A DNA stretch of 13,131 nucleotides, from the IMG/VR virus record IMGVR_UViG_2778261446_000002, positions 1 through 13,131 of that record. One strand, written 5' to 3'. The DNA is from a virus (lineage: Duplodnaviria; Heunggongvirae; Uroviricota; Caudoviricetes). The notes under the pieces were generated by a model. That model did not search any database, was not told the DNA's origin, and worked only from the letters and a program-made list of their open reading frames with translations. How positions within the stretch are numbered: the stretch's first letter is position 1; every line of letters starts with the position of its first letter. Position numbers and translations under genes: made by a program. Of the stretch, positions 1-13,131 are shown piece after piece.

Positions 1-65
1 CACGGGAATATCTGCGGCAGCAGGCCAGTAATGGGTTAAGTGATAACAGGTGTCTGGAAATATAG
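1..65 (+). CDS. IS2 transposase OrfB/InsD, C-terminal fragment (5' partial)
   Basis: Frame starting at base 3 reads REYLRQQASNGLSDNRCLEI then TAG at 63-65, resembling the IS2 InsD C-terminus from memory. The reading frame is open to the window edge. Confidence 0.6.
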   Translation, partial: REYLRQQASNGLSDNRCLEI

Positions 66-76
66 GGGCAAATCCA
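1..76 (+). mobile_element. IS2-family insertion sequence, right terminus (partial; element continues upstream of the window)
   Basis: Bases 1-76 end in ...GGTTAAGTGATAACAGGTGTCTGGAAATATAGGGGCAAATCCA, matching the IS2 right inverted repeat as I recall it, with a few substitutions. Host dsdC sequence resumes at base 77. Confidence 0.7.
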
Positions 77-580
77 CTGCAACGTGCCGGAATCGATTTG
101 GCGATCTACTTTGATGATGCGCCGTCAGCGCAACTCACTCATCACTTTCTGATGGATGAAGAAATCCTGCCAGTATGTAGCCCGGAATACGCTCAAAGAC
201 ATGCTTTAACCAACACGGTAATTAACCTGTGTCACTGTACGTTGCTCCATGACAGACAGGCATGGAGCAACGACTCCGGTACGGATGAATGGCATAGTTG
301 GGCGCAACATTATGCGGTTAATTTGCCGACATCTTCTGGAATTGGCTTTGATCGTTCTGATTTAGCTGTTATTGCCGCGATGAATCATATTGGGGTGGCG
401 ATGGGAAGAAAACGCCTGGTACAAAAAAGGCTTGCCAGTGGTGAGCTCGTCGCGCCGTTTGGCGATATGACGGTGAAATGCCATCAGCATTATTACATCA
501 CCACATTACCGGGCAGGCAGTGGCCAAAAATTGAAGCGTTTATTACCTGGCTAAGAGAACAGGTAAAAACCACTTCATAA
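77..580 (+). pseudogene. dsdC: dsdC (LysR-type D-serine regulator), 3' fragment truncated by the IS2 insertion; effector-binding domain only
   Basis: Translation LQRAGIDLAIYFDDAPSAQ...ITWLREQVKTTS* looks like the C-terminal half of a LysR-type regulator and matches my recollection of DsdC. The six-frame ORF start at ATG 50 lies inside the IS terminus, so it is not the native start. The N-terminal HTH half is absent from the window. Confidence 0.8.
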
Positions 581-675
581 TGAATAAAACCACGAGTTCC
601 TGGTGTGCCTTATTCGGCCTGCTAGTTCGAATTTAATTTACGGTTTTTATGTGGTTTTAGGGATAAACACAAGGA

Positions 676-690
676 TGGTGTCCCCTGCAG
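676..690 (-). other. attR core: 15 bp identical to the 3' end of tRNA-Arg argW (CTGCAGGGGACACCA on the minus strand)
   Basis: Plus-strand TGGTGTCCCCTGCAG is the reverse complement of the argW 3' terminus ...CTGCAGGGGACACCA. The flanking sequence does not continue the tRNA, so this is the partial duplicate at the prophage/host junction. Confidence 0.6.
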
Positions 691-763
691 ACATCTACTT
701 GAGGCGGCATGGGATTGATTGGAATGGTGTTTTTTAGATGTGAAAAATATTTTACCCGCTATT

Positions 764-964
764 TTACCCATTAGCGCGGCTTAAGAGCTTATTTTTGAAT
801 TCACAATGGTCACGATATAACCATCTTGCTCGCCCGTGGATAACTTTGGCTTTTGGCAGGTCGCCGGACTTAATCCGGTCATAGATGAAGGTTTTACCAA
901 AGCCAGTATCAGCCATGATGAATTTCAAATCAACCAGTGAATCAGGCTGTAGTTCGTGTTGCAT
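764..964 (-). CDS. torI: TorI-type excisionase / recombination directionality factor (66 aa)
   Basis: 66-aa product MQHELQPDSLVDLKFIMADTGFGKTFIYDRIKSGDLPKAKVIHGRARWLYRDHCEFKNKLLSRANG matches TorI of KplE1 as I recall it. SD GGAGAT precedes the ATG, and the gene sits next to the att core. Confidence 0.85.
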   Translation of the reverse strand: MQHELQPDSLVDLKFIMADTGFGKTFIYDRIKSGDLPKAKVIHGRARWLYRDHCEFKNKLLSRANG

Positions 965-1007
965 GAGTGCTATCTCCGAATAGGGAATCGAACCTGCAAA
1001 TCAGGTA

Positions 1008-1030
1008 ATAAAAAACCGCCATCAGGCGGC
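1008..1030 (-). terminator. Rho-independent terminator (minus strand); the stop codon of the upstream small gene lies in the loop
   Basis: Minus-strand CCGCC-TGAT-GGCGG hairpin followed by TTTTTTAT. Confidence 0.6.
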
Positions 1031-1189
1031 TTGGTGTTCTTTCAGTTCTTCAATTCGAATATTGGTTACGTCTGCATGTGCTATCTGCGCCCATATCATC
1101 CAGTGGTCATAGCAGTCGTTGATGTTCTCCGCTTCGATAACTCTGTTGAATGGTTCTCCATTCCATTCACCTGTGACTCGGAAGTGCAT
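1022..1189 (-). CDS. Hypothetical small phage protein (55 aa)
   Basis: ATG at 1189 preceded by GGAGATGATAA; product MHFRVTGEWNGEPFNRVIEAENINDCYDHWMIWAQIAHADVTNIRIEELKEHQAA, ending in the terminator loop. Below the size cut-off of the ORF track. Confidence 0.4.
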   Translation of the reverse strand: MHFRVTGEWNGEPFNRVIEAENINDCYDHWMIWAQIAHADVTNIRIEELKEHQAA

Positions 1190-1200
1190 TTATCATCTCC

Positions 1201-1226
1201 ATAAAACAAAACTCGCCGTAGCGAGT
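1201..1226 (-). terminator. Candidate rho-independent terminator (minus strand)
   Basis: ACTCGC-TACG-GCGAGT hairpin followed on the minus strand by TTTGTTTTAT. It sits between the 63-aa gene and the 55-aa gene. Confidence 0.45.
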
Positions 1227-1269
1227 TCAGATAAAAGAAATCCATCAATTGGTTAGGGTTTTTGTAATT

Positions 1270-1461
1270 CTACGAATTATGTTGTTTTTTAGCTTCAGCT
1301 TTCCATTCATCAAAGGCAGTGTCTTTGTTCATGGTGCTGATATTGATCTTACGGTCAATATCATATACACGCCACTCACCGTTAGGCCTCTCTTCGCATC
1401 TAACTAAGTATGAATTGCCATTAATATCTATGCGTCTGTCTATTTGCATGAACATTTTCAA
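1270..1461 (-). CDS. Hypothetical phage protein (about 61-63 aa)
   Basis: ORF-track ORF. SD GAGGG is 8 nt upstream of a TTG at 1461; in-frame ATGs at 1455 and 1449 are alternatives. Confidence 0.45.
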   Translation of the reverse strand: MKMFMQIDRRIDINGNSYLVRCEERPNGEWRVYDIDRKINISTMNKDTAFDEWKAEAKKQHNS

Positions 1462-1572
1462 TTTTCGAACCCTCTTTAATATGCATTTTTTGCTATTTCA
1501 GTAGTTTACTATTGATGAGGCGTTATTATACACACTTCATTAATGCAAGCATCTTTATGCTATGCTACTAAT

Positions 1573-1854
1573 TTAGCAATTGATATTTACCTTTATCGCG
1601 TATACCTTAACCGGTTTATCGCCGAAGTGGGGATGTGTGATTGTCTTGATTTCATATCCACCATACGGAACATCAATTCTACGGCTGGAATCGTCGCGCT
1701 TCGGATATCCCTTTGTGATAATCAGGCGGTCATACTCCCGGAACATAATTCGCTTATTCCAATAGTCATTACACAGGCGATACTCTTCCGTTTTCTCTCC
1801 TCGAATCATGGCATCGAAGTATTCACCTTTGACGGCAAGTTGCAGGTTAGCCAC
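1573..1854 (-). CDS. Hypothetical protein, possibly ASCH/PUA-like fold (94 aa)
   Basis: GTG start at 1854 preceded by AGGAGG and overlapping the stop of the upstream gene. The longer ORF-track version lacks an RBS. The ASCH-like assignment is a weak impression from the sequence pattern. Confidence 0.5.
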   Translation of the reverse strand: MANLQLAVKGEYFDAMIRGEKTEEYRLCNDYWNKRIMFREYDRLIITKGYPKRDDSSRRIDVPYGGYEIKTITHPHFGDKPVKVYAIKVNINC

Positions 1855-2413
1855 GGTTAACCTCCTGCGGCGGCTCTGGTAGCGGCATCCAGTGTGACGG
1901 CTCACATACCCCCTCAACACCATTCATGTAAAAGAATTGAAATAACCCTTTACCTTTGTGAAACCCTACCATCTGCTCTTTTGTGTCTGAACAATAAACC
2001 AAAACATCTTCTTCGTTTGGCATTCGCTCACTACAGCTTATCCAACTATCCGGAGTTACCGGAGAGTTGCCCGATAGCTGGTTCAACTTGTAAGTTTGGC
2101 TTACAGGTTCGGCTTTCAGTTCTGCTATGCGCTTTTTTGCTGTTTCCAGCTCATCCAGCAGCGCCAAGACGGTAGCCGGATTGGCTGCGGCGATGAATTC
2201 AGCATTGGCCTGCTGTTCCATTTGGAAATCTTCATCGAAGCCGCTTTCAGGATGCGCTCCTTCAATTCTGCAAATGGGAAGATATCCAACAACGTCACGA
2301 TGAATTAGCGCATCACCAGCATCAAGCCTCTCCTCTCCATATTCTAGCGACCACACACCACACGTTGCTTTCTCTGCCGCCTCACGCAGTGCCTGATAGT
2401 CAATCTTGCTCAC
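1847..2413 (-). CDS. Ead/Ea22-like N-terminal region fused to a DUF551-type C-terminal domain (188 aa)
   Basis: GTG start with strong SD AAGGAGG 7 nt upstream, overlapping the upstream stop (GTGA). C-terminal SHWMPLPEPP is typical of DUF551; N-terminal AANPATVLALLDELE is typical of ead/Ea22-like prophage proteins. Confidence 0.6.
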   Translation of the reverse strand: MSKIDYQALREAAEKATCGVWSLEYGEERLDAGDALIHRDVVGYLPICRIEGAHPESGFDEDFQMEQQANAEFIAAANPATVLALLDELETAKKRIAELKAEPVSQTYKLNQLSGNSPVTPDSWISCSERMPNEEDVLVYCSDTKEQMVGFHKGKGLFQFFYMNGVEGVCEPSHWMPLPEPPQEVNRG

Positions 2414-2892
2414 TGGTCGCCTCCTTTGCGAAGCTGGTCGGCGAACAAACGTACACTAGACGCTTCACTGCGTAGAAACTTAACGGCATAATCAAAACCA
2501 CCTCGTTCTGCGTCGTCTGCTCCGTTGTCGAGGTTATCTGCGTACATCTCTACCCCCTGCGCCCGTACTTCAGCCAGGAAAGCATCGGTAGATGGGGTGT
2601 TAAGTGAAAAGTCCTGTCGGCCTGATTTCAGATACGCAATGGCGATCTTTGTTGCTGCGCATTCGACAGCGAATTTCTCTTTTTCAGCAGCCATCTTCGC
2701 GCACTTGGCCTCAAGGTTATCAATCGTGATTCCAGCAGAACGACACTCCCGCAACGCCGTTTCCAGTTTTGATTCAAGTTCACCGAACTTACGCACCAGA
2801 TATTCAGCGTTTGTTTCGTTAACCTTTAAATCACTTGGGATGCATTTACCTTTCAGAAATCCATCCATCTCAATTAGTGACATTTGTTTCAT
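2410..2892 (-). CDS. Hypothetical Ea22-like coiled-coil protein (about 160 aa)
   Basis: ATG at 2892 ([12 protein letters not shown]...) overlaps the stop of the upstream 54-aa ORF (ATGA). The ORF-track start at 2910 is a GTG 18 nt further up. Confidence 0.55.
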
Positions 2893-3053
2893 TTCTTCCC
2901 ACTCCGCCACATTGCATTCAGATATTTGTTGTCATTAACAGAACCGAAACTATTTCTCTTAAGCAATTCCTCTCTCGATGGCATTGGCTTTACGCGTTGG
3001 CGAATAATCATTTCTGCCGGAAGAATGCCGGGATTGTATGCAAGTCCTCTCAT
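2889..3053 (-). CDS. Hypothetical small protein (54 aa), translationally coupled on both sides
   Basis: ATG at 3053 overlaps the stop of the upstream gene (ATGA) and its own TGA overlaps the ATG of the downstream gene (ATGA). Product [54 protein letters not shown]. Confidence 0.45.
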
Positions 3054-3340
3054 GATTTACTCTCCACGAACTGGTCAACGGCCATGCTAAGTGACACACC
3101 TAAAGTATCGATATGCTGCTGAATATCCTGTAGCGTCCGCGCTTGAGATAACAGAATTTCACGGTTGCATAACTCTTTAACCAGATGCTCAAACTTGCTG
3201 TAATAACCGATACGGCTTAGTGTTTCTTTCCCTGCATTCTCACCTTCTTTGATAATTCCTCTTTCGCTAAGAATCAGGTCGTGTTTGGTTCCGGTAATAA
3301 CGTATTTGCCGAGGTCGATGTTTAGCTTCATTGTTTTCAT
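3050..3340 (-). CDS. Hypothetical phage protein (96 aa)
   Basis: ATG at 3340 ([14 protein letters not shown]...) preceded by GAGG. An alternative ATG at 3358 overlaps the upstream stop. The longer ORF-track version has no RBS. Confidence 0.5.
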
Positions 3341-3350
3341 TGTTAATTCC

Positions 3351-3647
3351 TCAGTCATTACTGATAGCGCCATAGCGTGAGCGGTAATTACGCAGGCGCG
3401 GGTCGATATATTCAGGGAAGTGGGTATATGTGGCTTTGCGGAATGGTCGGATTGATGTCTGGTAAATTCGCTCTCGTTCTTCTTTCTCTGCAAGCCATAT
3501 ACAGTGGCGAAATTCCTTTTCTTCTTTCGTTTCCTGCGGTAGCGACATTATCCGGTCGTAGTTTTTCCTGAATTTATCCAGCACCTCCGATACGGAATTG
3601 CCGGAACAGCGGCGCGCGTCGTCCGCACCATACAGAGGCGCTGGCAT
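3351..3647 (-). CDS. Hypothetical basic phage protein (98 aa)
   Basis: ATG at 3647 with SD AGGAG 7 nt upstream; begins 14 nt after the SSB stop. Confidence 0.6.
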   Translation of the reverse strand: MPAPLYGADDARRCSGNSVSEVLDKFRKNYDRIMSLPQETKEEKEFRHCIWLAEKEERERIYQTSIRPFRKATYTHFPEYIDPRLRNYRSRYGAISND

Positions 3648-3660
3648 GATTTTCTCCTGA

Positions 3661-4176
3661 TTAAATTGCGTGAATAGCGTGACGAGGGAAGGGGAGGGTT
3701 ACTGGCGCAAAAGGTATATCGTCGTCAAACTCCATAGGTGGTTCGCTGTGATTTACCTGCTTCTGAGGCTGCTGTTTTTGTTGCTGACCGTTATTTCGCT
3801 GAGGTGAAGACTGTTCATTGCTTCCTTGCTTGCCACCAAGCATTTGCATGGTTCCACCAACGCCCACGATAACTTCGGTAGTGAACCGATCCTGTCCGCT
3901 TTGATCCTGCCATTTTCTTGTCCGCAATTTTCCTTCAAGATAAACCTCAGAGCCTTTTCGCAGATATTCGCTGGCAATTTCTGCCAGTTTCCCGCTCATT
4001 ACCACACGGTGCCACTCCGTCTGCTCCTTTTGCTCTCCAGTTTGCTTATCACGCCATTGTTCTGACGTAGCAACTATAAGGTTTGCAAATGCCGTTCCTG
4101 ATGGTGAATATCTGATTTCTGGATCATGCCCAAGGCGACCAATAATGATCACCTTATTTACGCCTCTACTTCCCAT
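3661..4176 (-). CDS. ssb: Single-stranded DNA-binding protein (SSB) with a 15-residue extension beyond the conserved DDDIPF tail
   Basis: N-terminal OB-fold region closely parallels E. coli SSB (SRGVNKVI..., [40 protein letters not shown]), followed by a Gln/Gly-rich linker and the acidic motif MEFDDDIPF, then [15 protein letters not shown] before the stop. Confidence 0.9.
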
Positions 4177-4884
4177 TTATGCCGCCTGTTTTAGTTCGTT
4201 AACTCTGATGTTCATTACCTGAACGCATTTAGCCTGCGCATCCTCATTGCCAGCCATTAATTGCCAGTCATGCTGATAACGTTCTATGAGTTTTTTCTTG
4301 TCAGTTTCTGTTGATGCATAATCGCTGAAGTCTTTCAGGATTTGTTCGCAGTCAACCGATGGAGATTTCTGGTTGGTATTTTCTGGTGATGGTTTGTTAT
4401 CTGATGCTGGGATTGCCCAGCCCGGCAGCGATGGAGGGAGCCAGTAAAATCCTGTTCCATCCTTCAGTTTTGCCCTGTGCCACCCCTGCTTTTTATCGGG
4501 AGATGTTTGTGCGAAACCTTCCTCAAGGTTATACAGATACCGACCGATTCCCCACTGAACGGCAGCGCGCTTCATTGCACCGGAACGACCACCTTTGACG
4601 GCTTCTACCTGCGTGTTTTCAGCAGCATCCCATTTGGTTACCCATTCGGAATCAATCTTTATTGATATGCCGCATTCAACGCCGCCGTTGTTGGGAATAT
4701 CGCGGTATTCATTGCGCCATCCTGCTTTGCCACAAACATCGTCAAGGCGTTTCATGATTGCCCGGTTCGTAACATAAGCCAGCACCATAGCCCACACCTT
4801 GCCATCGCGTGTTTTACCGCTTTGCTGTATTCGCCATTCGATATCTTCAGGGCAGAATGGCTCATCGAATTTGTTCAAATCCAT
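4177..4884 (-). CDS. Single-strand annealing recombinase, Rad52/Sak-like (235 aa)
   Basis: Sits immediately upstream of ssb in the position of lambda bet/exo. The motif GGRSGAMKRAAVQWGIGRYLYNL resembles the Rad52-family annealing core. Family assignment is by pattern, not by search. Confidence 0.6.
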   Translation of the reverse strand: MDLNKFDEPFCPEDIEWRIQQSGKTRDGKVWAMVLAYVTNRAIMKRLDDVCGKAGWRNEYRDIPNNGGVECGISIKIDSEWVTKWDAAENTQVEAVKGGRSGAMKRAAVQWGIGRYLYNLEEGFAQTSPDKKQGWHRAKLKDGTGFYWLPPSLPGWAIPASDNKPSPENTNQKSPSVDCEQILKDFSDYASTETDKKKLIERYQHDWQLMAGNEDAQAKCVQVMNIRVNELKQAA

Positions 4885-4892
4885 AATTCACC

Positions 4893-5063
4893 TCAGAATG
4901 GACATGGCCCAAGGAAATAACGCTGGTTTAATACTTCGACTCGGGACAAATTAAGGCATACCCGCATTCCTTCGCGGTCACCATTATGGCGATACCAGAG
5001 AGCTTTTTGCGTGTACATGCGTCTCTGTAACTTGCTCTCCTTCACTGTGGTTGCAAGTGACAT
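4893..5063 (-). CDS. Candidate small ORF (56 aa), overlapping an alternative ORF
   Basis: ATG at 5063 preceded by a strong SD (GAAGGAGATATTC-ATG); stop 9 nt before the annealing-protein start. Overlaps the 4984-5142 ORF in another frame, so both cannot be fully confirmed. Confidence 0.3.
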   Translation of the reverse strand: MSLATTVKESKLQRRMYTQKALWYRHNGDREGMRVCLNLSRVEVLNQRYFLGPCPF

Positions 5064-5142
5064 GAATATCTCCTTCGTTACCGATTAATTCTTTCATCTG
5101 ACGAATGAATTCTTCGTCTGACCAGTTATCTGTAAAACTCAT
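4984..5142 (-). CDS. Candidate small acidic ORF (52 aa), translationally coupled to the kil-like gene
   Basis: ATG at 5142 overlaps the kil-like stop (ATGA). Product MSFTDNWSDEEFIRQMKELIGNEGDIHVTCNHSEGEQVTETHVHAKSSLVSP. Confidence 0.35.
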   Translation of the reverse strand: MSFTDNWSDEEFIRQMKELIGNEGDIHVTCNHSEGEQVTETHVHAKSSLVSP

Positions 5143-5291
5143 TTCCTGCGATACCACGGAATGTTGATCGCTGATTTCATCGCTTTATTTGCTTCAAGCC
5201 ACATTTTGGAATCACCAATAAATCTGGCTATTACTGCTTTGTTCTGTGCAGCACGAAGCATCTGGTGATTAATGACTATTTCATTGCGCAT
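5139..5291 (-). CDS. Kil-like small protein (50 aa), candidate host cell-division inhibitor
   Basis: ATG at 5291 overlaps the cIII-like stop, with SD GGAGG. Product MRNEIVINHQMLRAAQNKAVIARFIGDSKMWLEANKAMKSAINIPWYRRK. The FIGD.KM core resembles my recollection of lambda Kil, and the position right after cIII fits. Confidence 0.45.
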   Translation of the reverse strand: MRNEIVINHQMLRAAQNKAVIARFIGDSKMWLEANKAMKSAINIPWYRRK

Positions 5292-5410
5292 AACGCCTCC
5301 AGTTGTTTCTTTGCTGCTCTGATTAATTGTTTAACTCGGCGTGATAATTCAGATTCGTGCGGGTAGAAAGCGGACATGACGCCGCTACCCGCGAGCTGAA
5401 AGTGCATCAT
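5276..5410 (-). CDS. cIII-like protein (44 aa), candidate FtsH inhibitor
   Basis: ATG at 5410 with SD AAGGAG. Product MMHFQLAGSGVMSAFYPHESELSRRVKQLIRAAKKQLEALCAMK shows the A.AG...P.ES.L..R...L pattern of the lambda CIII amphipathic helix. The 79-aa ORF-track extension runs through a terminator and is rejected. Confidence 0.5.
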   Translation of the reverse strand: MMHFQLAGSGVMSAFYPHESELSRRVKQLIRAAKKQLEALCAMK

Positions 5411-5474
5411 GGGTAACTCCTTATATTTGATTGCATAACGAAAACGCCTCAAGTGAAGCGTTATTGGTATGCAT

Positions 5475-5500
5475 ATAAAAAAGCCCCCACACTGGAGGGC
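5475..5500 (-). terminator. Rho-independent terminator (minus strand) upstream of the cIII-like gene
   Basis: Minus-strand GCCCTCCAGTGTGGGGGC hairpin followed by TTTTTTAT. Confidence 0.6.
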
Positions 5501-5595
5501 AAAGAAGATTTCCAATAATCAGAACAAGTCGGCTCCTGTTTAGTTACGAGCGACATTGCTCCGTGTATTCACTCGTTGGAATGAATACACAGTGC

Positions 5596-5796
5596 TTATT
5601 CGCGAGCTTTGAGCATTGCGTCTGCAAACTTATATGCAGCGCTTGCTGCATAATTAACAGCTCCATCAGAATCATTATCGATAATCGATGGATTGCTAAT
5701 CATTGCTTGCATAGCCTTTGCCGCGAAGTAATCACGTAATGTCGCATCACTTGCCATTTCTGGGCGTTTGATATCTGCTTCGTAAAACTCGCACAT
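5596..5796 (-). CDS. Hypothetical phage protein (66 aa)
   Basis: ATG at 5796 overlaps the upstream stop (TGATG) with SD GGGAGGTGA. Product MCEFYEADIKRPEMASDATLRDYFAAKAMQAMISNPSIIDNDSDGAVNYAASAAYKFADAMLKARE. Confidence 0.55.
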   Translation of the reverse strand: MCEFYEADIKRPEMASDATLRDYFAAKAMQAMISNPSIIDNDSDGAVNYAASAAYKFADAMLKARE

Positions 5797-6092
5797 CACT
5801 CACCTCCCAGAGCCTTGATGATTGCTGCAAAACCTTTATTAACAGCTCCATACCATTCTGGATATGTTGTCGTTGTTCTATTTTTGGATTGCTTAAGTAA
5901 TAACTGAAGTGCTTCGAGAAGGTCAGGTGCTGCCGCTATTAGATTGGCATCTTCAATGCATTGAACTTCCTCACAGATTGCAATATACGAACGCCAGCCT
6001 GCGCCATTTTCAAGAGAGTCTGCCTGGATGATTTTAATCTCATCGCCATCCATCATTATTTCCCACTTACCTTCAGTACCTTTAAATTCCAT
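5796..6092 (-). CDS. Hypothetical phage protein (98 aa) with an ead/Ea22-like motif
   Basis: ATG at 6092 with SD AGAGG. Contains LIAAAPDLLEALQLL, similar to the AANPATVLALLDELE motif of the 1847-2413 protein. Confidence 0.6.
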   Translation of the reverse strand: MEFKGTEGKWEIMMDGDEIKIIQADSLENGAGWRSYIAICEEVQCIEDANLIAAAPDLLEALQLLLKQSKNRTTTTYPEWYGAVNKGFAAIIKALGGE

Positions 6093-6112
6093 GTTAGCCT
6101 CTGTTGTTTATG

Positions 6113-6143
6113 CCAAAAATAAAGGCCACCATCAGGCAGCCTT
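6113..6143 (-). terminator. Candidate tL1-like rho-independent terminator just after ral
   Basis: Minus-strand AAGGCUGCC-UGAU-GGUGGCCUU hairpin (two G-U pairs) followed by UAUUUUUGG; the ral stop codon lies in the loop. Confidence 0.5.
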
Positions 6144-6332
6144 GTTGTTCAGTTTACCAAGTTCTCTGGCAATCATTGCCGTCGTTCGTATTGCCCATTT
6201 ATCGACATATTTCCCATCTTCCATTACAGGAAACATTTCTTCAGGCTTAACCATGCATTCCGATTGCAACTTGCATCCATTGCATCGTTTGAATTGTCCA
6301 CACCATTGATTCTTATCAATAGTCGTAGTCAT
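6132..6332 (-). CDS. ral: Ral-like restriction alleviation protein (66 aa)
   Basis: 66-aa Cys-rich product MTTTIDKNQWCGQFKRCNGCKLQSEC..., located directly downstream of N and orf28 as in lambda. Matches my recollection of lambda Ral in size and start. Confidence 0.55.
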   Translation of the reverse strand: MTTTIDKNQWCGQFKRCNGCKLQSECMVKPEEMFPVMEDGKYVDKWAIRTTAMIARELGKLNNKAA

Positions 6333-6402
6333 ACGGATAGTCCTGGTATTGTTCCATCACATCCTGCGGATGCTCTTCGAACTCTTCAAATTCTTTTTCC
6401 AT
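6316..6402 (-). CDS. orf28-like small acidic ORF (28 aa)
   Basis: ATG at 6402 with SD GAGGTG. Product MEKEFEEFEEHPQDVMEQYQDYPYDYDY overlaps the ral start by 17 nt. Lambda has a 28-codon ORF in this position. Confidence 0.35.
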   Translation of the reverse strand: MEKEFEEFEEHPQDVMEQYQDYPYDYDY

Positions 6403-6410
6403 ATCTCACC

Positions 6411-6737
6411 TCAAATAAGTGGTTTGCTGCCTAATTTCATTTTCTGGCGACCAACACAAGTCACACCCATTTCACTGCGTGGCTTGCTGTACCATGTGCG
6501 CTGATTCTTGCGCTCAATACGTTGCAGGTTGCTTTCAATCTGTTCGTGGTATTCAGCCAGCACCGTAAGGTCTATCGGATTCAGTGCGCTTTCTACTCGT
6601 GATTTCGGTTTGCGATTCAGCGAGAGAATAGGGCGGTTAACTGGTTTTGCGCTTACCCCAACCAACAGGGGATTTGCTGCTTTCCATTGAGCCTGTTTCT
6701 CTGCGCGACGTTCGCGGCGGCGTGTTTGTGCATCCAT
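6411..6737 (-). CDS. N: Antitermination protein N (lambda-type, 108 aa)
   Basis: Product MDAQTRRRERRAEKQAQWKAANPLLVGVSAKPVNRPILSLNRKPKSRVESALNPIDLTVLAEYH... is near-identical to lambda N, with SD CAGGAGAATCCAG-ATG as in lambda. The 30-codon upstream extension in the ORF track is rejected. Confidence 0.9.
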   Translation of the reverse strand: MDAQTRRRERRAEKQAQWKAANPLLVGVSAKPVNRPILSLNRKPKSRVESALNPIDLTVLAEYHEQIESNLQRIERKNQRTWYSKPRSEMGVTCVGRQKMKLGSKPLI

Positions 6738-6847
6738 CTGGATTCTCCTGTCAGTTAGCTTTGAGTAACGCGCCGTGATGCTTATCTCCACGGTTGCTGT
6801 CTTGCAGCTGCATTTCGCGCTACTCAAAGCCTTCTGCTTTGAATGCT

Positions 6848-6878
6848 GCCCTTCTTCAGGGCTTAATTTTTAAGAGCC
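6848..6878 (-). promoter_or_regulatory. nutL (boxA GGCTCTTA, boxB GCCCTGAAGAAGGGC)
   Basis: Minus strand reads GCTCTTAAAAATTAAGCCCTGAAGAAGGGCAGCATTC, essentially lambda nutL. Confidence 0.85.
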
Positions 6879-6918
6879 TCACCTTCAATGGTGGTTAGTG
6901 CGTCCTGCTGATGGCTAA

Positions 6919-6996
6919 ATAGTACGATTTGTACTTTATCGAGTCAATACAAAATGTTCTAAATATAATTGGTTTTTTATAACGCTTTGTATTTAA
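6919..6996 (-). promoter_or_regulatory. pL-type promoter with candidate OL operators
   Basis: Minus strand has -35 TTGACT (6942-6947), a 17-nt spacer and -10 TACTAT (6919-6924), then the lambda-like leader ATCAGCAGGACGCACT. Inverted repeat AGTACgatttGTACT (6921-6935) lies in the spacer; related sites at 6945-6959 and 6982-6996. Confidence 0.55.
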
Positions 6997-7011
6997 TGGG
7001 TTTATATTTTG

Positions 7012-7040
7012 GAAAAAGAAAACCCGACACTAAGGTCGGG
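7012..7040 (-). terminator. Rho-independent terminator downstream of the repressor gene
   Basis: Minus-strand CCCGAC-CUUAGU-GUCGGG hairpin followed by UUUUCUUUUUCC, 33 nt after the cI-like stop. Confidence 0.6.
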
Positions 7041-7072
7041 TTATTGTTGTGTGCTTTAGAGTGGTGAGGCTG

Positions 7073-7732
7073 TTAACTAAATGTCTCTTCAGGCCACTGG
7101 CTGGCGATAACTTTCCCTACAACGGAACAGCTATCATTGCATGGGATCATTGGATATTGCGGGTTTAGTGGCTGTAGGAACACCTGACCGCTATCCCTGA
7201 TCAGTTTCTTGAAGGTAAACTCGTCACCACCAAGTCTGGCTATGCAGAAATCACCTGGCTCAACAGCCTGCTCAGGGTCAACGAGAATTAACATCCCGTC
7301 AGGAAAGCTTGGCTTGGATCCTGTTGGCGCGGTCATGGAATTACCTTCAACTTCAAGCCAGAACGCACAATCACTGGCTTTTTTGGTTGTGCTGACCCAT
7401 CTCTCCGCATCACCTTTGGTAAAGGTTCTAAGCTCAGGCGAGAACATCCCGGCCTGAACATGAGAAAAAACAGGGTACTCATATTGTTTTTTAACGGGGG
7501 CAGATGAGTATTCGCCAACAGGTGAAAATGTACCGTCGTGGTTGAATGAGACGTTATCAATACCAAGGTATTTAAACACCACACCAATCTCGTCAAGAGA
7601 TGGATGACGAGATCCGCGCAACCAGTGACCAATTCCACCCTGCGTCATACCAAGCTCTTCAGCTAACTTCTCTTGAGTTATGCCGAGCTCTTTCATTCTG
7701 GATCTAGCCAGTTCATACCATTTCATTTTCAT
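7073..7732 (-). CDS. cI: CI-type prophage repressor (HTH plus LexA/S24-like autocleavage domain), P22 C2-like
   Basis: N-terminal HTH ([22 protein letters not shown]) and C-terminal [13 protein letters not shown]...FTFKKL...[12 protein letters not shown] closely parallel the P22 C2 C-domain as I recall it. Start uncertain: ATG 7732, ATG 7726 (better SD spacing) or ORF-track ATG 7774. Confidence 0.8.
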
Positions 7733-7741
7733 ACCCTTATT

Positions 7742-7817
7742 ATTACGCTCTGTACTAAAACCATCCATGCACAAGATGTATTTTTTGTTTGCATTCTAAA
7801 AGTACATATCGTATTAT
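7742..7817. promoter_or_regulatory. OR operator region with pR and divergent pRM
   Basis: pR has -35 TTGCAT (7789-7794), a 17-nt spacer and -10 TATTAT (7812-7817). Candidate operators AGTACatatcGTATT (7801-7815) and ATTACgctctGTACT (7742-7756) share the half-sites seen at OL. Candidate pRM -10 TAGAAT on the minus strand (7793-7798). Confidence 0.5.
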
Positions 7818-7843
7818 TGTTTCATGGTTACTATGGAGGGCAT

Positions 7844-8059
7844 ATGAGCAACCTACGAAAATATCGAGAGTCACTGAATATCTCTCAAACAACACTTGCT
7901 AAGGCAGTTGGATGCACACAGGGAGCTATCGGACATTGGGAATCTGGTCGTCGCTTCCCAGACCTTAAAACATGCCGTGCTCTTGTTGAGTGCCTAAACA
8001 AGTTAGGCGCAAAAGTCAGTCTTGATGACGTGTTCCCGCCGGAACACAAAGCCGCTTAA
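7844..8059 (+). CDS. cro: Cro-type HTH repressor (71 aa), not lambda Cro
   Basis: ATG at 7844 with SD GGAGGG. HTH motif ISQTTLAKAVGCTQGAIGHWESG; divergent from the cI-like gene across the operator region. Confidence 0.7.
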   Translation: MSNLRKYRESLNISQTTLAKAVGCTQGAIGHWESGRRFPDLKTCRALVECLNKLGAKVSLDDVFPPEHKAA

Positions 8060-8067
8060 GACATTCC

Positions 8068-8099
8068 CGCTCTTACACATCCCAGCCCTGAAAAAGGGC
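8068..8099 (+). promoter_or_regulatory. nutR (boxA CGCTCTTAC, boxB GCCCTGAAAAAGGGC)
   Basis: CGCTCTTACACATCCCAGCCCTGAAAAAGGGC, essentially lambda nutR. Confidence 0.85.
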
Positions 8100-8170
8100 A
8101 TCAAATTAAACCACACCTATGGTGTATGCATTTATTTGCATACCTTCAATCAATTGTTATCTAAGGAAAT
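8100..8170 (+). terminator. tR1-like rho-dependent terminator region
   Basis: ATCAAATTAAACCACACCTATGGTGTATGCATTTATTTGCATACCTTCAATCAATTG is near-identical to my recollection of the lambda tR1 region between nutR and cII. Rho dependence cannot be read from sequence. Confidence 0.45.
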
Positions 8171-8178
8171 ACTTACAT

Positions 8179-8472
8179 ATGGTTCGTGCAAACAAACGCA
8201 ACGAGGCTCTAAGAATCGAGAGTGCGTTGCTTAACAAAATCGCAATGCTTGGAACTGAGAAGACAGCGGAAGCTGTGGGAGTTGATAAGTCGCAGATCAG
8301 CAGGTGGAAGAGGGATTGGATTCCAAAGTTCTCAATGCTGCTTGCTGTTCTTGAATGGGGCGTCGTCGACGACGATATGGCTCGATTGGCACGACAAGTT
8401 GCTTCGATTCTCACCAATAAAAAACGCCCGGAGGCAACCGAGCGTTCTGAACAAATCCAGATGGAATTCTGA
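8179..8472 (+). CDS. cII: Transcriptional activator CII (lambda-type, 97 aa)
   Basis: Product [75 protein letters not shown]... is near-identical to lambda CII. The 20-codon ORF-track extension is rejected. Confidence 0.9.
8188..8201 (-). promoter_or_regulatory. pRE CII-binding site (TTGC-N6-TTGC direct repeats)
   Basis: Minus strand reads TTGCGTTTGTTTGC within the 5' end of cII, as in lambda pRE. Confidence 0.7.
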
Positions 8473-8496
8473 GGTCATTACTGGATCAATCCACAG
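8418..8496 (-). ncRNA. oop: OOP antisense RNA (antisense to the cII 3' end)
   Basis: Minus strand reads GGATTGATCCAGTAATGACCTCAGAATTCCATCTGGATTTGTTCAGAACGCTCGGTTGCCTCCGGGCGTTTTTTAT, matching lambda OOP as recalled and ending in hairpin CGCUCGG/CCGGGCG plus a U-run. The 5' end is approximate. Confidence 0.7.
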
Positions 8497-8504
8497 GAGT
8501 CATT

Positions 8505-8651
8505 ATGACAAAACAACTCAGTCCTTACCAGGACAAAATTCACAAACACATACTACGTGATCGCTTCCTGTCCAGCTTCAAGCAGCCTGGTCGATTCCGG
8601 GCTGAGTTGGAAAAAGTGAAGCTGATGCAGAAGGAGAAAGGTCATGAGTAA
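8505..8651 (+). CDS. Hypothetical small basic protein (48 aa) between cII and the initiator gene
   Basis: ATG at 8505 with SD AGGAG 6 nt upstream; stop overlaps the O-like start by 8 nt. Below the ORF-track size cut-off. Confidence 0.45.
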
Positions 8652-9504
8652 TCTTGCAACCGTAACACATTTAAGGCCTTCACAACGGCCTGTGGAGCGT
8701 CGTGTGGCAGAAGTTGAAGATGGTTATACCCGTCTTGCAAATGCCCTGTATGAAGAGCTTATCGGCGCAGATTTAACGAAAAATCAGAGCAAGGTTGCCC
8801 ACGCCATATGCCGTAAAACATACGGCTACGGTAAAAAGATGGATCGCATTTCTGATAGTCAGTTAGCTCAAATTACCAGGCTGCCAAGACAGAAGGTAAA
8901 CAAGGCCAAGAATGAGCTTATCGCGATGAAGGTTATCCTTCGCGAAGGCCAGCAAATCGGGCCTAACAAGAACATCGAAGAATGGCAAATCGAAGGGTGT
9001 CACTACTCTGGTGATAATGTCACTGCATTGGTGACAAAAAGTGTCACCAAAACGGTGACAGCGCTGTCACCAAAACAGGGACACACAAAAGAAACTATTA
9101 CAAAAGAAAAAAGAAATAATAAAAACACTATGTCCGAAAGTGTTCGGACGGAGTGTGAAAAATCATCTGACCGTCACGAAGAAACCGACAAGGCATTCGA
9201 GGAAATATTCTGGTGTGCAGGCATGCGGAAAGCCGGGAAGAAAAACGCGGCTTCGGCATTCAGAACACAGTTCAGGGAATGGCGTAAAACTACCAGGGGT
9301 ACGGCAAGCGAGTTTGCCACGATGCTGGCAGAAGACATCGCATGCAGGAATGGTAAGCAGTTCGGATTCGACAGGTTGTTACCATCGAGCTACCTGAACG
9401 GTCAACGCTGGAACGACGAGAAGCCAGAAACTATTCAACCACAATCCAAACCATCATCCGCAATCACCGTATCGAAAACTGGCTACGTGTTTTTCGACAG
9501 GTGA
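8644..9504 (+). CDS. Replication initiator, lambda O-like N-terminal domain with a divergent C-terminal domain (286 aa)
   Basis: N-terminal region ([57 protein letters not shown]...) resembles the phage O N-terminal DNA-binding domain. The gene contains the iteron array, as lambda O does. Confidence 0.75.
9010..9130. repeat. Replication origin: palindromic GGTGACA...TGTCACC iterons followed by an A-rich (AT-rich) tract, inside the O-like gene
   Basis: GGTGATAATGTCACTG (9010-9025), GGTGACAAAAAGTGTCACC (9030-9048) and GGTGACAGCGCTGTCACC (9054-9071) separated by AAAAC, then about 50 nt of A-rich sequence. Confidence 0.6.
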
Positions 9505-9507
9505 ACC

Positions 9508-9615
9508 ATGAAATCAAAAATCAAATCGCTACTGGTCGCTGGTTATAACCACGGCTGGTTAAGTATTTCGTTTGTCGATTTCTGGTTTAAAAATCTCAAT
9601 CTGAGGGAATCATGA
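9508..9615 (+). CDS. Candidate small hydrophobic ORF (35 aa) coupled to the primase-helicase
   Basis: ATG at 9508 with a short-spaced SD AGGTGA; TGA overlaps the ATG of the next gene (ATGA). Product MKSKIKSLLVAGYNHGWLSISFVDFWFKNLNLRES. Confidence 0.3.
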   Translation: MKSKIKSLLVAGYNHGWLSISFVDFWFKNLNLRES

Positions 9616-11492
9616 CGCCAAGTGAACTTAGCGACCTGCTTTGGGCGCAGGTTGACAGGGTGGCTCCGCACCTGTTGCCAAACGGCAAGAAAGAGGGGCA
9701 TGAGTGGGTTGCCGGTAACGTCAACGGTGACAAGGGAAACAGCCTTAAGGTCAACCTTAGCGGCAAGAAAAAATGGGCTGATTTCGCTGAGGGAGACGGC
9801 GGTGACATGCTTGATTTGTGGATGGCATGTCGTGGAATTAACCTGCATCAGGCTATGCAGGAAGCGAAAGCCTTTCTCGGAATCAAGGATGACGATCACC
9901 ATTTCGATGCCAAACGTGAGAAGAAATTCTCCAGACCTGACCGCAAGAAAATCGCCCGCTACGTTACCAGAACAGAATCCCATCTTGAGTACCTGCAATC
10001 GCGTGGCATATCGCCAGAAGTCGTAAAGCGCTACGAGGTTGTCAGCGGCAAGGTGTGGAAGGGAGAACGAGAACTTGATGCACTGGTGCTTCCGTACAAA
10101 CGCGATGGTGAGTTGTTGCAGGTCAAGCGAATCAGCACTGAGCGCCCGGACGGGAAGAAAGTCATTATGGCAGAAGGTGATTGCGAACCTTGTCTGTTCG
10201 GATGGCAGGCTCTGGACGCTGGCGTGAGGGCGGTTGTGCTTTGCGAAGGCGAAATTGATTGTATGAGCTATGCGCAATACGGCATCTCGGCGTTATCCGT
10301 GCCGTTTGGTGGAGGGAAAGGCGCTAAGCAACAGTGGATTGAGTTTGAGTACCACAACCTCGACAGGTTTGAGGAAATATTCATCTCGATGGACGTTGAT
10401 GATGTTGGTCGTGAAGCCGCAAGGGAAATCGCAAGCCGACTCGGTGAACATCGTTGCCGTCTTGTTACTCTGCCGTACAAAGACATCAACGAATGCCTGA
10501 TGAACGGTGTTACCGAGGATGAAATCTGGCAGTACATCGGCACGGCATCCTACTTCGATCCTGAAGAACTCTACAGTGCGCGAGAGTTTTACCAGGACAC
10601 TATCAACGCTTTCTACGGCAAGCAGCAGTATCTGTTTAATCCACCGTGGGAATCTCTGGCAGATAAATTCCAGTTCCGTGAGGCAGAGTTGACGCTGGTC
10701 AATGGTGTGAACGGTCACGGAAAAACGGAGGTTGTCGGGCATATGGCACTTGAGGCAATGCGTCAGGGTGTGAAGACGTGCATCGCGTCACTTGAGCTGA
10801 AGCCTGGTATTCTCCTTAAGCGCCTTACCCGTCAGGCGACGTGCTGCAAGATGCCGCCAGTGCTGGAAATTGACTCTGCATTTAAATTTTATGACGAAAG
10901 ACTTTGGGTGTTTGGTCTGACCGGAACGGCGAAAGCCGACAGGCTGATCGAAATATTCGACTACGCTCGCCGCCGATACGGGATCCAGTTATTCATCATC
11001 GACAGCCTGATGAAATGTGGCATAGGCGACGATGACTATAACGGGCAGAAGGCGTTTGTTGACTCGATTTGCGACTTCAAAAACAAAACAAACTCCCACG
11101 TCATTCTCGTTACTCACTCGCGAAAAGGAGACAGCGAAGAAAAACCAACCGGGAAAATGGACGTAAAAGGCTCTGGAGCGATAACAGACCTGACAGACAA
11201 CCTTTTCATCATCTGGCGTAACAAGGCTCGCGAGAGAGCGTTACAGAGAGTTCAGAGTGGTGAAAAGATGTCAGAGAAGGACGAACAGCTACTGGCATCT
11301 CCGGCATCTGTTTTGATGCTTGAAAAACAACGTAACGGCGAAGGTTGGGAAGGTGGTGTCCCGTTGTTCCTTGACGAGCAATCGCACCAGTTCCTGCAAC
11401 TTGAATCAGGATCGCCATATAGCTACATCGCCAATATGCCGAAATCGGAATATGACGAGGCGTGGCGACAGGAAAACGTGACGGAGTATTAA
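9612..11492 (+). CDS. Bifunctional DNA primase/helicase (Toprim domain plus DnaB/RecA-like P-loop helicase, 626 aa)
   Basis: Toprim signatures (VVLCEGEIDCMSYAQ; ISMDVDDVGREAA), Walker A (NGVNGHGKTE) and Walker B (IQLFIIDSLMK). SD GAGGG 5 nt upstream. It occupies the position of lambda P. Confidence 0.75.
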   Translation: MTPSELSDLLWAQVDRVAPHLLPNGKKEGHEWVAGNVNGDKGNSLKVNLSGKKKWADFAEGDGGDMLDLWMACRGINLHQAMQEAKAFLGIKDDDHHFDAKREKKFSRPDRKKIARYVTRTESHLEYLQSRGISPEVVKRYEVVSGKVWKGERELDALVLPYKRDGELLQVKRISTERPDGKKVIMAEGDCEPCLFGWQALDAGVRAVVLCEGEIDCMSYAQYGISALSVPFGGGKGAKQQWIEFEYHNLDRFEEIFISMDVDDVGREAAREIASRLGEHRCRLVTLPYKDINECLMNGVTEDEIWQYIGTASYFDPEELYSAREFYQDTINAFYGKQQYLFNPPWESLADKFQFREAELTLVNGVNGHGKTEVVGHMALEAMRQGVKTCIASLELKPGILLKRLTRQATCCKMPPVLEIDSAFKFYDERLWVFGLTGTAKADRLIEIFDYARRRYGIQLFIIDSLMKCGIGDDDYNGQKAFVDSICDFKNKTNSHVILVTHSRKGDSEEKPTGKMDVKGSGAITDLTDNLFIIWRNKARERALQRVQSGEKMSEKDEQLLASPASVLMLEKQRNGEGWEGGVPLFLDEQSHQFLQLESGSPYSYIANMPKSEYDEAWRQENVTEY

Positions 11493-11521
11493 ATGACCAT
11501 CTACATCACTGAGCTAATAAC

Positions 11522-11553
11522 AGGCCTGCTGGTAATCGCAGGCCTTTTTATTT
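11522..11553 (+). terminator. Rho-independent terminator after the replication genes (tR2-like position)
   Basis: AGGCCTGC-TGGTAATC-GCAGGCCT hairpin (8 bp) followed by TTTTTATTTGG. Confidence 0.7.
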
Positions 11554-11568
11554 GGGGGAGAGTAAATC

Positions 11569-11775
11569 GTGGCTGAGTTTATGCTCGTCGCATTCAAATG
11601 CGTTGGCGTTGGATGGATTCTTCTGACGTTTTTTATTGTTCTGCATAGCTACATTCGTCTTGTGAATGACGGTAAAGACCCATGGTATACGTTGTTTGGC
11701 GCTGCATTTGTCTGGGTGATTATCGGTGTTATGCCTGTCGCTGTAGCAAAAATGGCGTGGCGTTTTGTGAGTTGA
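11569..11775 (+). CDS. Small membrane protein with two predicted transmembrane helices (68 aa)
   Basis: GTG start at 11569 with SD GGGGGAGAG 8 nt upstream. Two hydrophobic stretches (LVAFKCVGVGWILLTFFIVL; LFGAAFVWVIIGVMPVAVA). Confidence 0.55.
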   Translation: MAEFMLVAFKCVGVGWILLTFFIVLHSYIRLVNDGKDPWYTLFGAAFVWVIIGVMPVAVAKMAWRFVS

Positions 11776-11792
11776 ACTGAGGGTAAGTATCG

Positions 11793-12149
11793 ATGGACGA
11801 ATCAAGAAAGCAGTTTGAGGAATACGTTGCCAAAAAATTGAGATTACCATTCGAGATGATAACCGAGGCAAGAAATGGTGATAGGTACTTCGCATTTTCA
11901 AGCATGGATATTCGTCACTCCTTAAATGAGTGGTGGACTTTATGGCAGGCATCGCGAGCAGCTATTGAACTGGATATCGACTGGCCAGAATCGAATGACG
12001 ACTTTTGGAAAGATGGTGAAGAAGGTGCTTATGCGATGGGTTATGAGGATGGGCGTGACAAAACGGTAATTGCAGTAATGAAAGCTATCAGAGCCGCTGG
12101 AATTAAAGAGAAGAATTTCGATGAAGCAAACAATATTCCTCCGAACTAA
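11793..12149 (+). CDS. Hypothetical acidic phage protein (118 aa)
   Basis: ATG at 11793 with SD GAGGG; the 3' end overlaps the ninB start by 29 nt. Confidence 0.6.
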   Translation: MDESRKQFEEYVAKKLRLPFEMITEARNGDRYFAFSSMDIRHSLNEWWTLWQASRAAIELDIDWPESNDDFWKDGEEGAYAMGYEDGRDKTVIAVMKAIRAAGIKEKNFDEANNIPPN

Positions 12150-12531
12150 GCAACAACAGCAAGCCGCAATCAACGCCATCCTCGCAACACCACTCGATAA
12201 AGACAAGCCAGTCACCATCCGCATTACTGACTACAAGCGCAACCTTGACCAGAACGCAAAATTTCACGCGATGCTGGCGGATATCGCACGTCAGGTTCAA
12301 TGGTGCGATAAGTGGTTAAAACCAGAACAATGGAAGGTTTTGTTGATTAGCGGTCATGCAGTGGCAACAAAGCAGGAAGCTGATGTTTTACCCGGCCTTG
12401 AAGGCGAATACGTCAACATTCGCGAAAGCAGCGCGCAGATGAGCGTGAAGCGTATGGCAAGTCTTATCGAGTACACAACAGCATGGGCTATTGGTCAGGG
12501 TGTCAGATTTACCGACAGGAGGTACGAATGA
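12121..12531 (+). CDS. ninB: NinB-like recombination protein (136 aa)
   Basis: Start MKQ..., the [20 protein letters not shown] motif and overall length parallel lambda NinB as I recall it. Confidence 0.7.
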
Positions 12532-12704
12532 GGCGACAGCGACGAAGTTTCACCGACATCATCTGCGAAAACTGCAAATACCTTCCAACGAAACGCTCCA
12601 GAAATAAACGCAAGCCAATCCCAAAAGAATCTGACGTAAAAACCTTCAATTACACAGCTCACCTGTGGGATATCCGGTGGCTAAGATATCGTGCGAGGAA
12701 ATGA
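12528..12704 (+). CDS. ninE: NinE-like protein (58 aa)
   Basis: ATG at 12528 overlaps the ninB stop (ATGA) with SD GGAGG. Product [58 protein letters not shown] matches my recollection of the NinE family. Confidence 0.55.
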
Positions 12705-12972
12705 CAATGGATTATTCACAGTTAAGTGATTTTGAAATTAACAGAATGGTAGGAGACATAATTTTTAAAGGCCTTTGGGCAAGTAAACCGGAAACATCAG
12801 GGAATAACACCAACAAATGGTATTACGGAAATGCTGATACAACTTTTGAGCCATTAAATCATTTGCCTGACTACTGCAATGATCCGAGCGCTTCATGGCC
12901 GATTATTGAGAAATACAGGATTTCTATCTTAGACCAGTTAACTGAATGGTGTGTGGATGCAAAAGGCGTAAG
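12701..12972 (+). pseudogene. nin-region gene of unknown function, interrupted by the IS10-type insertion after codon 90
   Basis: ATG at 12701 overlaps the ninE stop (ATGA). The reading frame runs into the IS terminus at 12973, so the last 15 residues of the 117-aa ORF-track product are IS-encoded. Confidence 0.55.
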
Positions 12973-13131
12973 CCTGAGAGATCCCCTCATAATTTCCCCA
13001 AAGCGTAACCATGTGTGAATAAATTTTGAGCTAGTAGGGTTGCAGCCACGAGTAAGTCTTCCCTTGTTATTGTGTAGCCAGAATGCCGCAAAACTTCCAT
13101 GCCTAAGCGAACTGTTGAGAGTACGTTTCGA
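12973..13131 (-). mobile_element. IS10-type (IS4 family) insertion sequence, inside-end terminus (partial; continues beyond the window)
   Basis: Terminus CTGAGAGATCCCCTCATAATTTCC carries the GATC Dam site of the IS10 inside end and resembles the IS10 outside end CTGATGAATCCCC. The minus strand encodes a transposase C-terminus (see next feature). Confidence 0.7.
12986..13131 (-). CDS. IS10-type transposase, C-terminal fragment (5' partial, runs off the window)
   Basis: Minus-strand frame reads ...[47 protein letters not shown], matching my recollection of the Tn10/IS10 transposase C-terminus. The frame is open to the window edge. Confidence 0.65.

Follow-up and report, generated by a model that had tools for sequence, protein, structure and literature searches.

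A probable solo insertion of IS10-Right in the ninX gene of a P22-like prophage of Escherichia coli

A single copy of IS10-Right (ISVsa5) has, very probably, been inserted by simple transposition into ninX, a gene of the nin region, in the 13,131-bp stretch of DNA analysed here (hereafter, the window). The interrupted gene belongs to a P22-like/lambdoid prophage at the argW-dsdC site of E. coli, and the observation is of an ordinary kind: a further private insertion of IS10, in a prophage gene that is dispensable. The junction at the right edge of the window joins ninX to the inside end of the element, and whether Tn10 can be attached is evident directly from the kind of end, inside or outside, that forms such a junction. 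The features on which this reading rests are given below, followed by the alternatives and by the possible consequences for the prophage.

Identification of the inside end of IS10-Right

The right-edge junction reads ...GATGCAAAAGGCGTAAGC joined directly to CTGAGAGATCCCCTCATAATTTCCCC... in the window sequence, and three overlapping features were assigned to its right-hand side.

12974 to 13131, minus strand: the inside-end-proximal 158 bases of IS10-Right (= ISVsa5), identical at all aligned positions; the element continues past the contig end
12974 to 12996: inside-end terminal repeat of IS10, CTGAGAGATCCCCTCATAATTTC, read from the sequence, with a start common to five aligned copies
12987 to 13131, minus strand: 3′ end of the IS10 transposase gene, comprising the last 47 codons and the stop (12987-12989), from translation; it reads towards ninX

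To the window we aligned both IS10 arms of Tn10 from plasmid R100 and two solo ISVsa5 copies, one from a Salmonella plasmid and one from the chromosome of E. coli CUPS04. All five copies are identical from CTGAGAG onward, the six IS10-Left sites listed below apart, and are unrelated directly to the left of this motif. This abrupt loss of similarity just 5′ of CTGAGAG, seen in five independent copies, fixes the terminus of the IS at 12974, the first base of the inside-end tip (CTGAGAGATCCCC...). Over 12974-13131 the window is identical to IS10-Right of the R100 Tn10 at 157 of 157 aligned positions and to the solo ISVsa5 copies at 158 of 158, whereas it differs from IS10-Left at six IS positions, namely 30, 49, 58, 59, 62 and 81 (IS10-Left has A at 30, G at 49, TA at 58-59, C at 62 and G at 81). 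The same segment was found at 99% identity or more in over 890 plasmid records and 884 E. coli records, and, judged by sequence, the match to IS10 is far beyond chance.

The transposase 3′ end maps onto the annotated ISVsa5 transposase coding sequence WP_001339197.1 (minus strand, positions 11015-12223 of record L004). Because the transposase C-terminus and its stop at 12987-12989 lie on the minus strand, the IS10 end contained in the window is the inside end; from this orientation, the body of the element and then its outside end lie to the right of the window. Over the visible part, which is 158 of 1329 bp, there is no difference from IS10-Right of Tn10 (IS4 family; ISVsa5 is its NCBI/ISfinder name): the element shows the same terminal CTGAGAGATCCCC and GATC, the same transposase C-terminus, and a stop at the same 14-16 bases from the tip. 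The GATC Dam site lies inside the terminal repeat, at 12980-12983. The 23-bp length of the inside-end repeat and the role of its Dam site we take to be established IS10 knowledge.

Interruption of ninX and its chimeric reading frame

The junction splits an open reading frame of 103 codons into a native and an IS-derived part.

12707 to 12973, plus strand: native 5′ part of ninX, 89 of 113 codons, 100% identical to the intact ninX of E. coli S163-2 (WP_159122214.1, 113 aa)
12974 to 13018, plus strand: IS-derived tail of the chimeric ninX frame, 14 codons and a TGA (13016-13018), from translation of the frame

The frame was assigned to ninX by a profile match to Pfam PF10765 (Phage_P22_NinX, DUF2591). 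Its ATG at 12707 lies directly downstream of ninB (12121-12531) and ninE (12528-12704), and residues 1-89 are identical to those of the 113-aa S163-2 NinX, which is encoded between ninE and ninF in that strain. The insertion thus cuts the gene after codon 89, with the loss of the C-terminal 24 residues. Genes of the nin region are dispensable in lambda.

An initial annotation of this DNA, made from the sequence alone, had described an IS10-type insertion that cuts a nin-region gene and had named as checks a database comparison of the terminus and transposase fragment and a comparison with the uninterrupted gene of related prophages. Both comparisons bear it out: terminus and transposase fragment match IS10, the intact 113-aa ninX is found in S163-2 and TUM9754, and the insertion can now be specified as IS10-Right, by its inside end, in ninX. 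The finer details needed correction. The element begins one base to the right of the 12973 first given, and the reading frame does end in an IS-derived tail, of 14 codons and a TGA rather than 15 codons. Similarly, the nine target bases had been read correctly but placed at 12964-12972, again one base too far left.

The chimeric frame (12707-13018) corresponds to RefSeq entry WP_123008362.1, a 103-aa "phage protein NinX family protein" that occurs on a single contig. This entry, with 89 NinX residues followed by 14 encoded by IS10, carries no disruption flag in RefSeq, and its listing as an ordinary NinX is a minor artefact of annotation. NinX fragments that end at residues 61-96, at contig ends, are also present in many draft E. 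coli assemblies (P0002-P0015). The recurrent contig breaks within ninX presumably mark a mosaic boundary common to co-resident lambdoid prophages. We considered whether other truncated NinX proteins of the same 90% cluster might represent the same junction, and rejected them: they are contig-end partials that end in native sequence and contain no IS junctions. One 94-aa member of this cluster (P0007) has a different non-native tail, EPPRVSWRVFYL.

Target site of the insertion

Nine bases adjoin the IS end on the ninX side.

12965 to 12973: GGCGTAAGC, the target bases adjoining the IS end; presumably the left-hand copy of a 9-bp target duplication

The IS10 target consensus is NGCTNAGCN / NPuCNNNGPyN (PMC4574204). 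The left half of GGCGTAAGC (GGC) fits this consensus and the right half (AG) does not, which counts against a solo insertion; nevertheless, IS10 insertions at imperfect target sites have been documented (PMC2744996). A register shifted by one base, GCGTAAGCC, would be closer to the consensus, yet it would need TGAGAG to be preceded by CCC, and only CC is present in the window, so this register was discarded.

The solo ISVsa5 copies in records L004 and L005 have an inside-end-to-outside-end layout and are flanked by 9-bp duplications, GGCTGAACC and CGTTGGGTG respectively, which are likewise non-consensus. Solo insertions of this kind, for example those in CUPS04 and in plasmid pSA20030575.1, therefore resemble the window copy in the element itself, in the use of one inside and one outside end and in their non-consensus 9-bp targets, but their target sites differ from that in ninX. 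In CUPS04 (about 3001-4329 of L005) the solo ISVsa5/IS10 lies between emrY and dsdA with the duplication CGTTGGGTG, a few kilobases from the argW-dsdC prophage site; it is an independent insertion in another strain. An apparent coverage of the window up to 13131 by CUPS04 proved to be an artefact of joined BLAST pieces, as the ISVsa5 of that strain is located between emrY and dsdA and not in ninX.

Prophage setting, close relatives and age of the insertion

The left edge of the window also lies in an insertion sequence.

1 to 76, plus strand: right end of IS2 in the host gene dsdC; the S163-2 counterpart is 100% identical

The right terminal sequence of IS2, an IS3-family element (...GGGGCAAATCCA), is present at 1-76 and is followed at 77-81 by CTGCA, the 5-bp IS2 target duplication, and by the 3′ part of dsdC to position 580. 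In the 100%-identical S163-2 the complete IS2 (4746-6076 of L003) measures 1331 bp, lies within dsdC and has CTGCA on both sides, and the intact dsdC of CUPS04 has CTGCA once, so that the first identification of an IS2 end at this edge holds. The product of dsdC, the D-serine regulator, is required for activation of dsdXA, and the use of D-serine may be affected by the dsdC::IS2 allele.

Adjoining dsdC, at the end of the prophage, is torI (764-964, minus strand), as at the KplE1/CPS-53 site in K-12. The 13,131-bp window contains no integrase gene and no tRNA gene, which fits an integrase gene at the other end of the prophage, by argW. P22/Sf6/HK620-like prophages at argW-dsdC (the K-12 KplE1/CPS-53 site) likewise have torI by dsdC, and as in the window their recombination, immunity, replication and nin modules follow in succession, with the gene order ninB-ninE-ninX-ninF. 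The window prophage differs from them in that its ninX is interrupted; its relative in S163-2 has Q::IS1A.

The complete genomes of E. coli S163-2 and TUM9754 are 100% identical to the window from 1 to 12974, the IS2 end included, and carry an intact ninX that encodes 113 aa; downstream of it lie ninF, a KilAC antirepressor gene, a DUF1364 gene, rusA, ninH and the antiterminator gene Q. The ninX::IS10 junction was found in no complete E. coli genome, and among the public assemblies searched it occurs on a single contig. Since relatives that are 100% identical have an intact ninX, the IS10 insertion must be private and recent. By contrast, the IS2 in dsdC lies outside the prophage and is common to S163-2 and TUM9754, both of which lack the IS10; it is therefore older than the IS10 event and serves as a marker of the lineage.

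Insertion sequences at both contig edges

By exact-protein look-up, the window was identified as the entire 13,131-bp contig NOCT01000092.1 of the draft assembly GCA_002517975.1, an accession for which the literature gave no match. Short-read contigs normally end at multicopy repeats. The two edges thus most likely lie in insertion sequences because the draft contig broke at repeats, and IS2 and IS10 most likely represent unrelated events whose "bracketing" of the window is an assembly effect. The bracketing had at first been taken as meaningful, a view that is not sustained by a window that is a whole draft contig, nor by an IS2 in host DNA that is shared with relatives lacking the IS10. Insertion sequences at both ends of a draft contig reflect assembler breaks at repeats and are no evidence of a composite transposon.

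The lengths of the IS sequence at the two ends offer a further lead. The left contig end comprises 76 IS2 bases and 1 flank base, or 77. At the right end, 77 bases (13055-13131) extend past IS10 position 81, which is the last site distinguishing IS10-Left from IS10-Right, and 81 + 77 = 158. Both ends would fit a de Bruijn assembly with k = 77. The same arithmetic would imply that the genome has, at another place, an IS10-Left-like copy, which might be a Tn10 remnant, and lacks a second IS10-Right inside end.

A solo element rather than Tn10

The arrangement of Tn10 in plasmid R100 provides a reference for the orientation of the window element. The IS10 transposase genes of R100 (36239-37447, plus strand, and 43963-45171, minus strand) both point inward, and between the IS10 arms are gltS/jemA, tetR, tet(B), tetC and tetD. 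Given this orientation, tet is flanked by the inside ends, and it is the outside ends that delimit Tn10. Two outside ends take part when the composite element transposes, whereas the IS by itself moves by means of one outside end and one inside end (PMC1676026). In its right arm Tn10 carries the same IS10-Right sequence as that in the window; however, the inside end of Tn10 abuts tetD-side DNA, whereas that of the window abuts the phage gene ninX. Therefore, the window junction is not a canonical Tn10 border, at which outside ends join the target DNA, and only the IS10 body and an outside end can follow rightwards. No tet sequence is present in the 13,131-bp window. The suggestion that Tn10 or tet genes lie just beyond the window is thus contradicted by the orientation of the element.

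We also counted IS10 inside ends and tet(B) genes in complete genomes.

IS10 inside end: 4896 places overall in 1028 genomes, 4146 of the places on chromosomes (5426 complete E. coli genomes)
tet(B): 901 places overall in 848 genomes, 363 of the places on chromosomes (5426 complete E. coli genomes)

If each tet(B) is taken to account for two IS10 copies, solo copies make up at least 63% of the IS10 copies overall and at least 82% of those on chromosomes in complete E. coli genomes. These counts run against the premise, also part of the initial annotation, that IS10 usually travels in Tn10. Published rates are about 1e-4 for IS10 alone, about 1e-7 for Tn10 and, for rearrangements promoted by Tn10, about 1e-5 per generation (PMC4574204, PMC1676026). 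On these figures, a simple IS10 insertion is about ten times as likely as an inside-end rearrangement, before the requirement for a nearby Tn10 is considered.

The strongest alternative is that the junction is the scar of a rearrangement promoted by IS10 or Tn10, either an adjacent inside-end deletion or inversion or a homologous recombination between IS10 copies, with the late region deleted or moved and DNA other than the rest of ninX beyond the IS10. Inside-end events of Tn10 also join an inside end to new DNA (PMC1676026), the far side of the IS10 lies beyond the window (a point that likewise counts against the solo insertion), and the 81 + 77 contig end agrees with a k = 77 graph of a genome that has an IS10-Left-like copy elsewhere and no second IS10-Right inside end, so that a Tn10 remnant could be present. 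Nevertheless, we regard such a scar as unlikely, given the roughly tenfold commoner transposition of solo IS10, the dominance of solo copies on E. coli chromosomes, the undisturbed prophage at ninX in the nearest relatives and a window that bears no sign that Tn10 was ever near.

It is very improbable that the ninX-IS10 junction is an assembly chimera absent from the strain. The source is a draft short-read assembly and the junction is known from one contig only, which also counts against the solo insertion, but the break coincides precisely with the terminal nucleotide of IS10, as transposition predicts and a random misjoin does not, and the same contig is recorded for 3 samples. Finally, although Tn10 has IS10-Right as its right arm, and the presence of tet(B) in 848 and of IS10 in 1028 of the 5426 complete genomes makes a Tn10 somewhere in the strain plausible, a complete Tn10 with tet(B) in ninX and tet genes just past the window is scarcely credible, since a canonical Tn10 is bounded by outside ends with its inside ends towards tet (PMC1676026), and an inside end that touches the target would place tet on the ninX side, where it is absent, with the IS10 body and outside end lying rightwards.

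Proposed event and possible consequences for the prophage

In the simple insertion that we favour, a single IS10-Right would have transposed by cut-and-paste into ninX with its own inside and outside ends. Past the window we would expect about 1.17 kb more of IS10, the outside end, a second GGCGTAAGC and the remaining ninX (CCAATATTTG...). The predicted right junction would consist of the outside end (...AATCATTAGGGGATTCATCAG, CATCAG), then GGCGTAAGC-CCAATATTTGATACC and the rest of ninX, followed by ninF. This predicted junction and, as a control, the known left junction were both absent from the genome_contigs and metagenome_contigs collections, which do not include the source assembly, so that the search is uninformative.

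Relative to rightward phage transcription, the transposase gene lies in antisense orientation. The pOUT promoter lies within about 100 bp of the end of the element at which the transposase gene starts, reads outward and can activate adjacent genes (PMC2744996, PMC9330008). In the window prophage, pOUT would be directed to the right, into ninF, the antirepressor gene, rusA, ninH and Q, and the insertion may thus replace, and not only block, downstream nin transcription. There is a slight chance that, given a simple insertion of a complete element, pOUT would drive constitutive, repressor-independent expression of an antirepressor or antiterminator in a lysogen and would in this way change the induction of the prophage, or else that the junction marks a deletion or inversion, mediated by IS10, by which the late region was lost. 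In this lineage the prophage may be defective already, or unable to express its late genes, as Q::IS1A was seen in S163-2: in that strain, at 20763-22163 of L003 and past the end point of the window, the antiterminator gene Q is split by IS1A.
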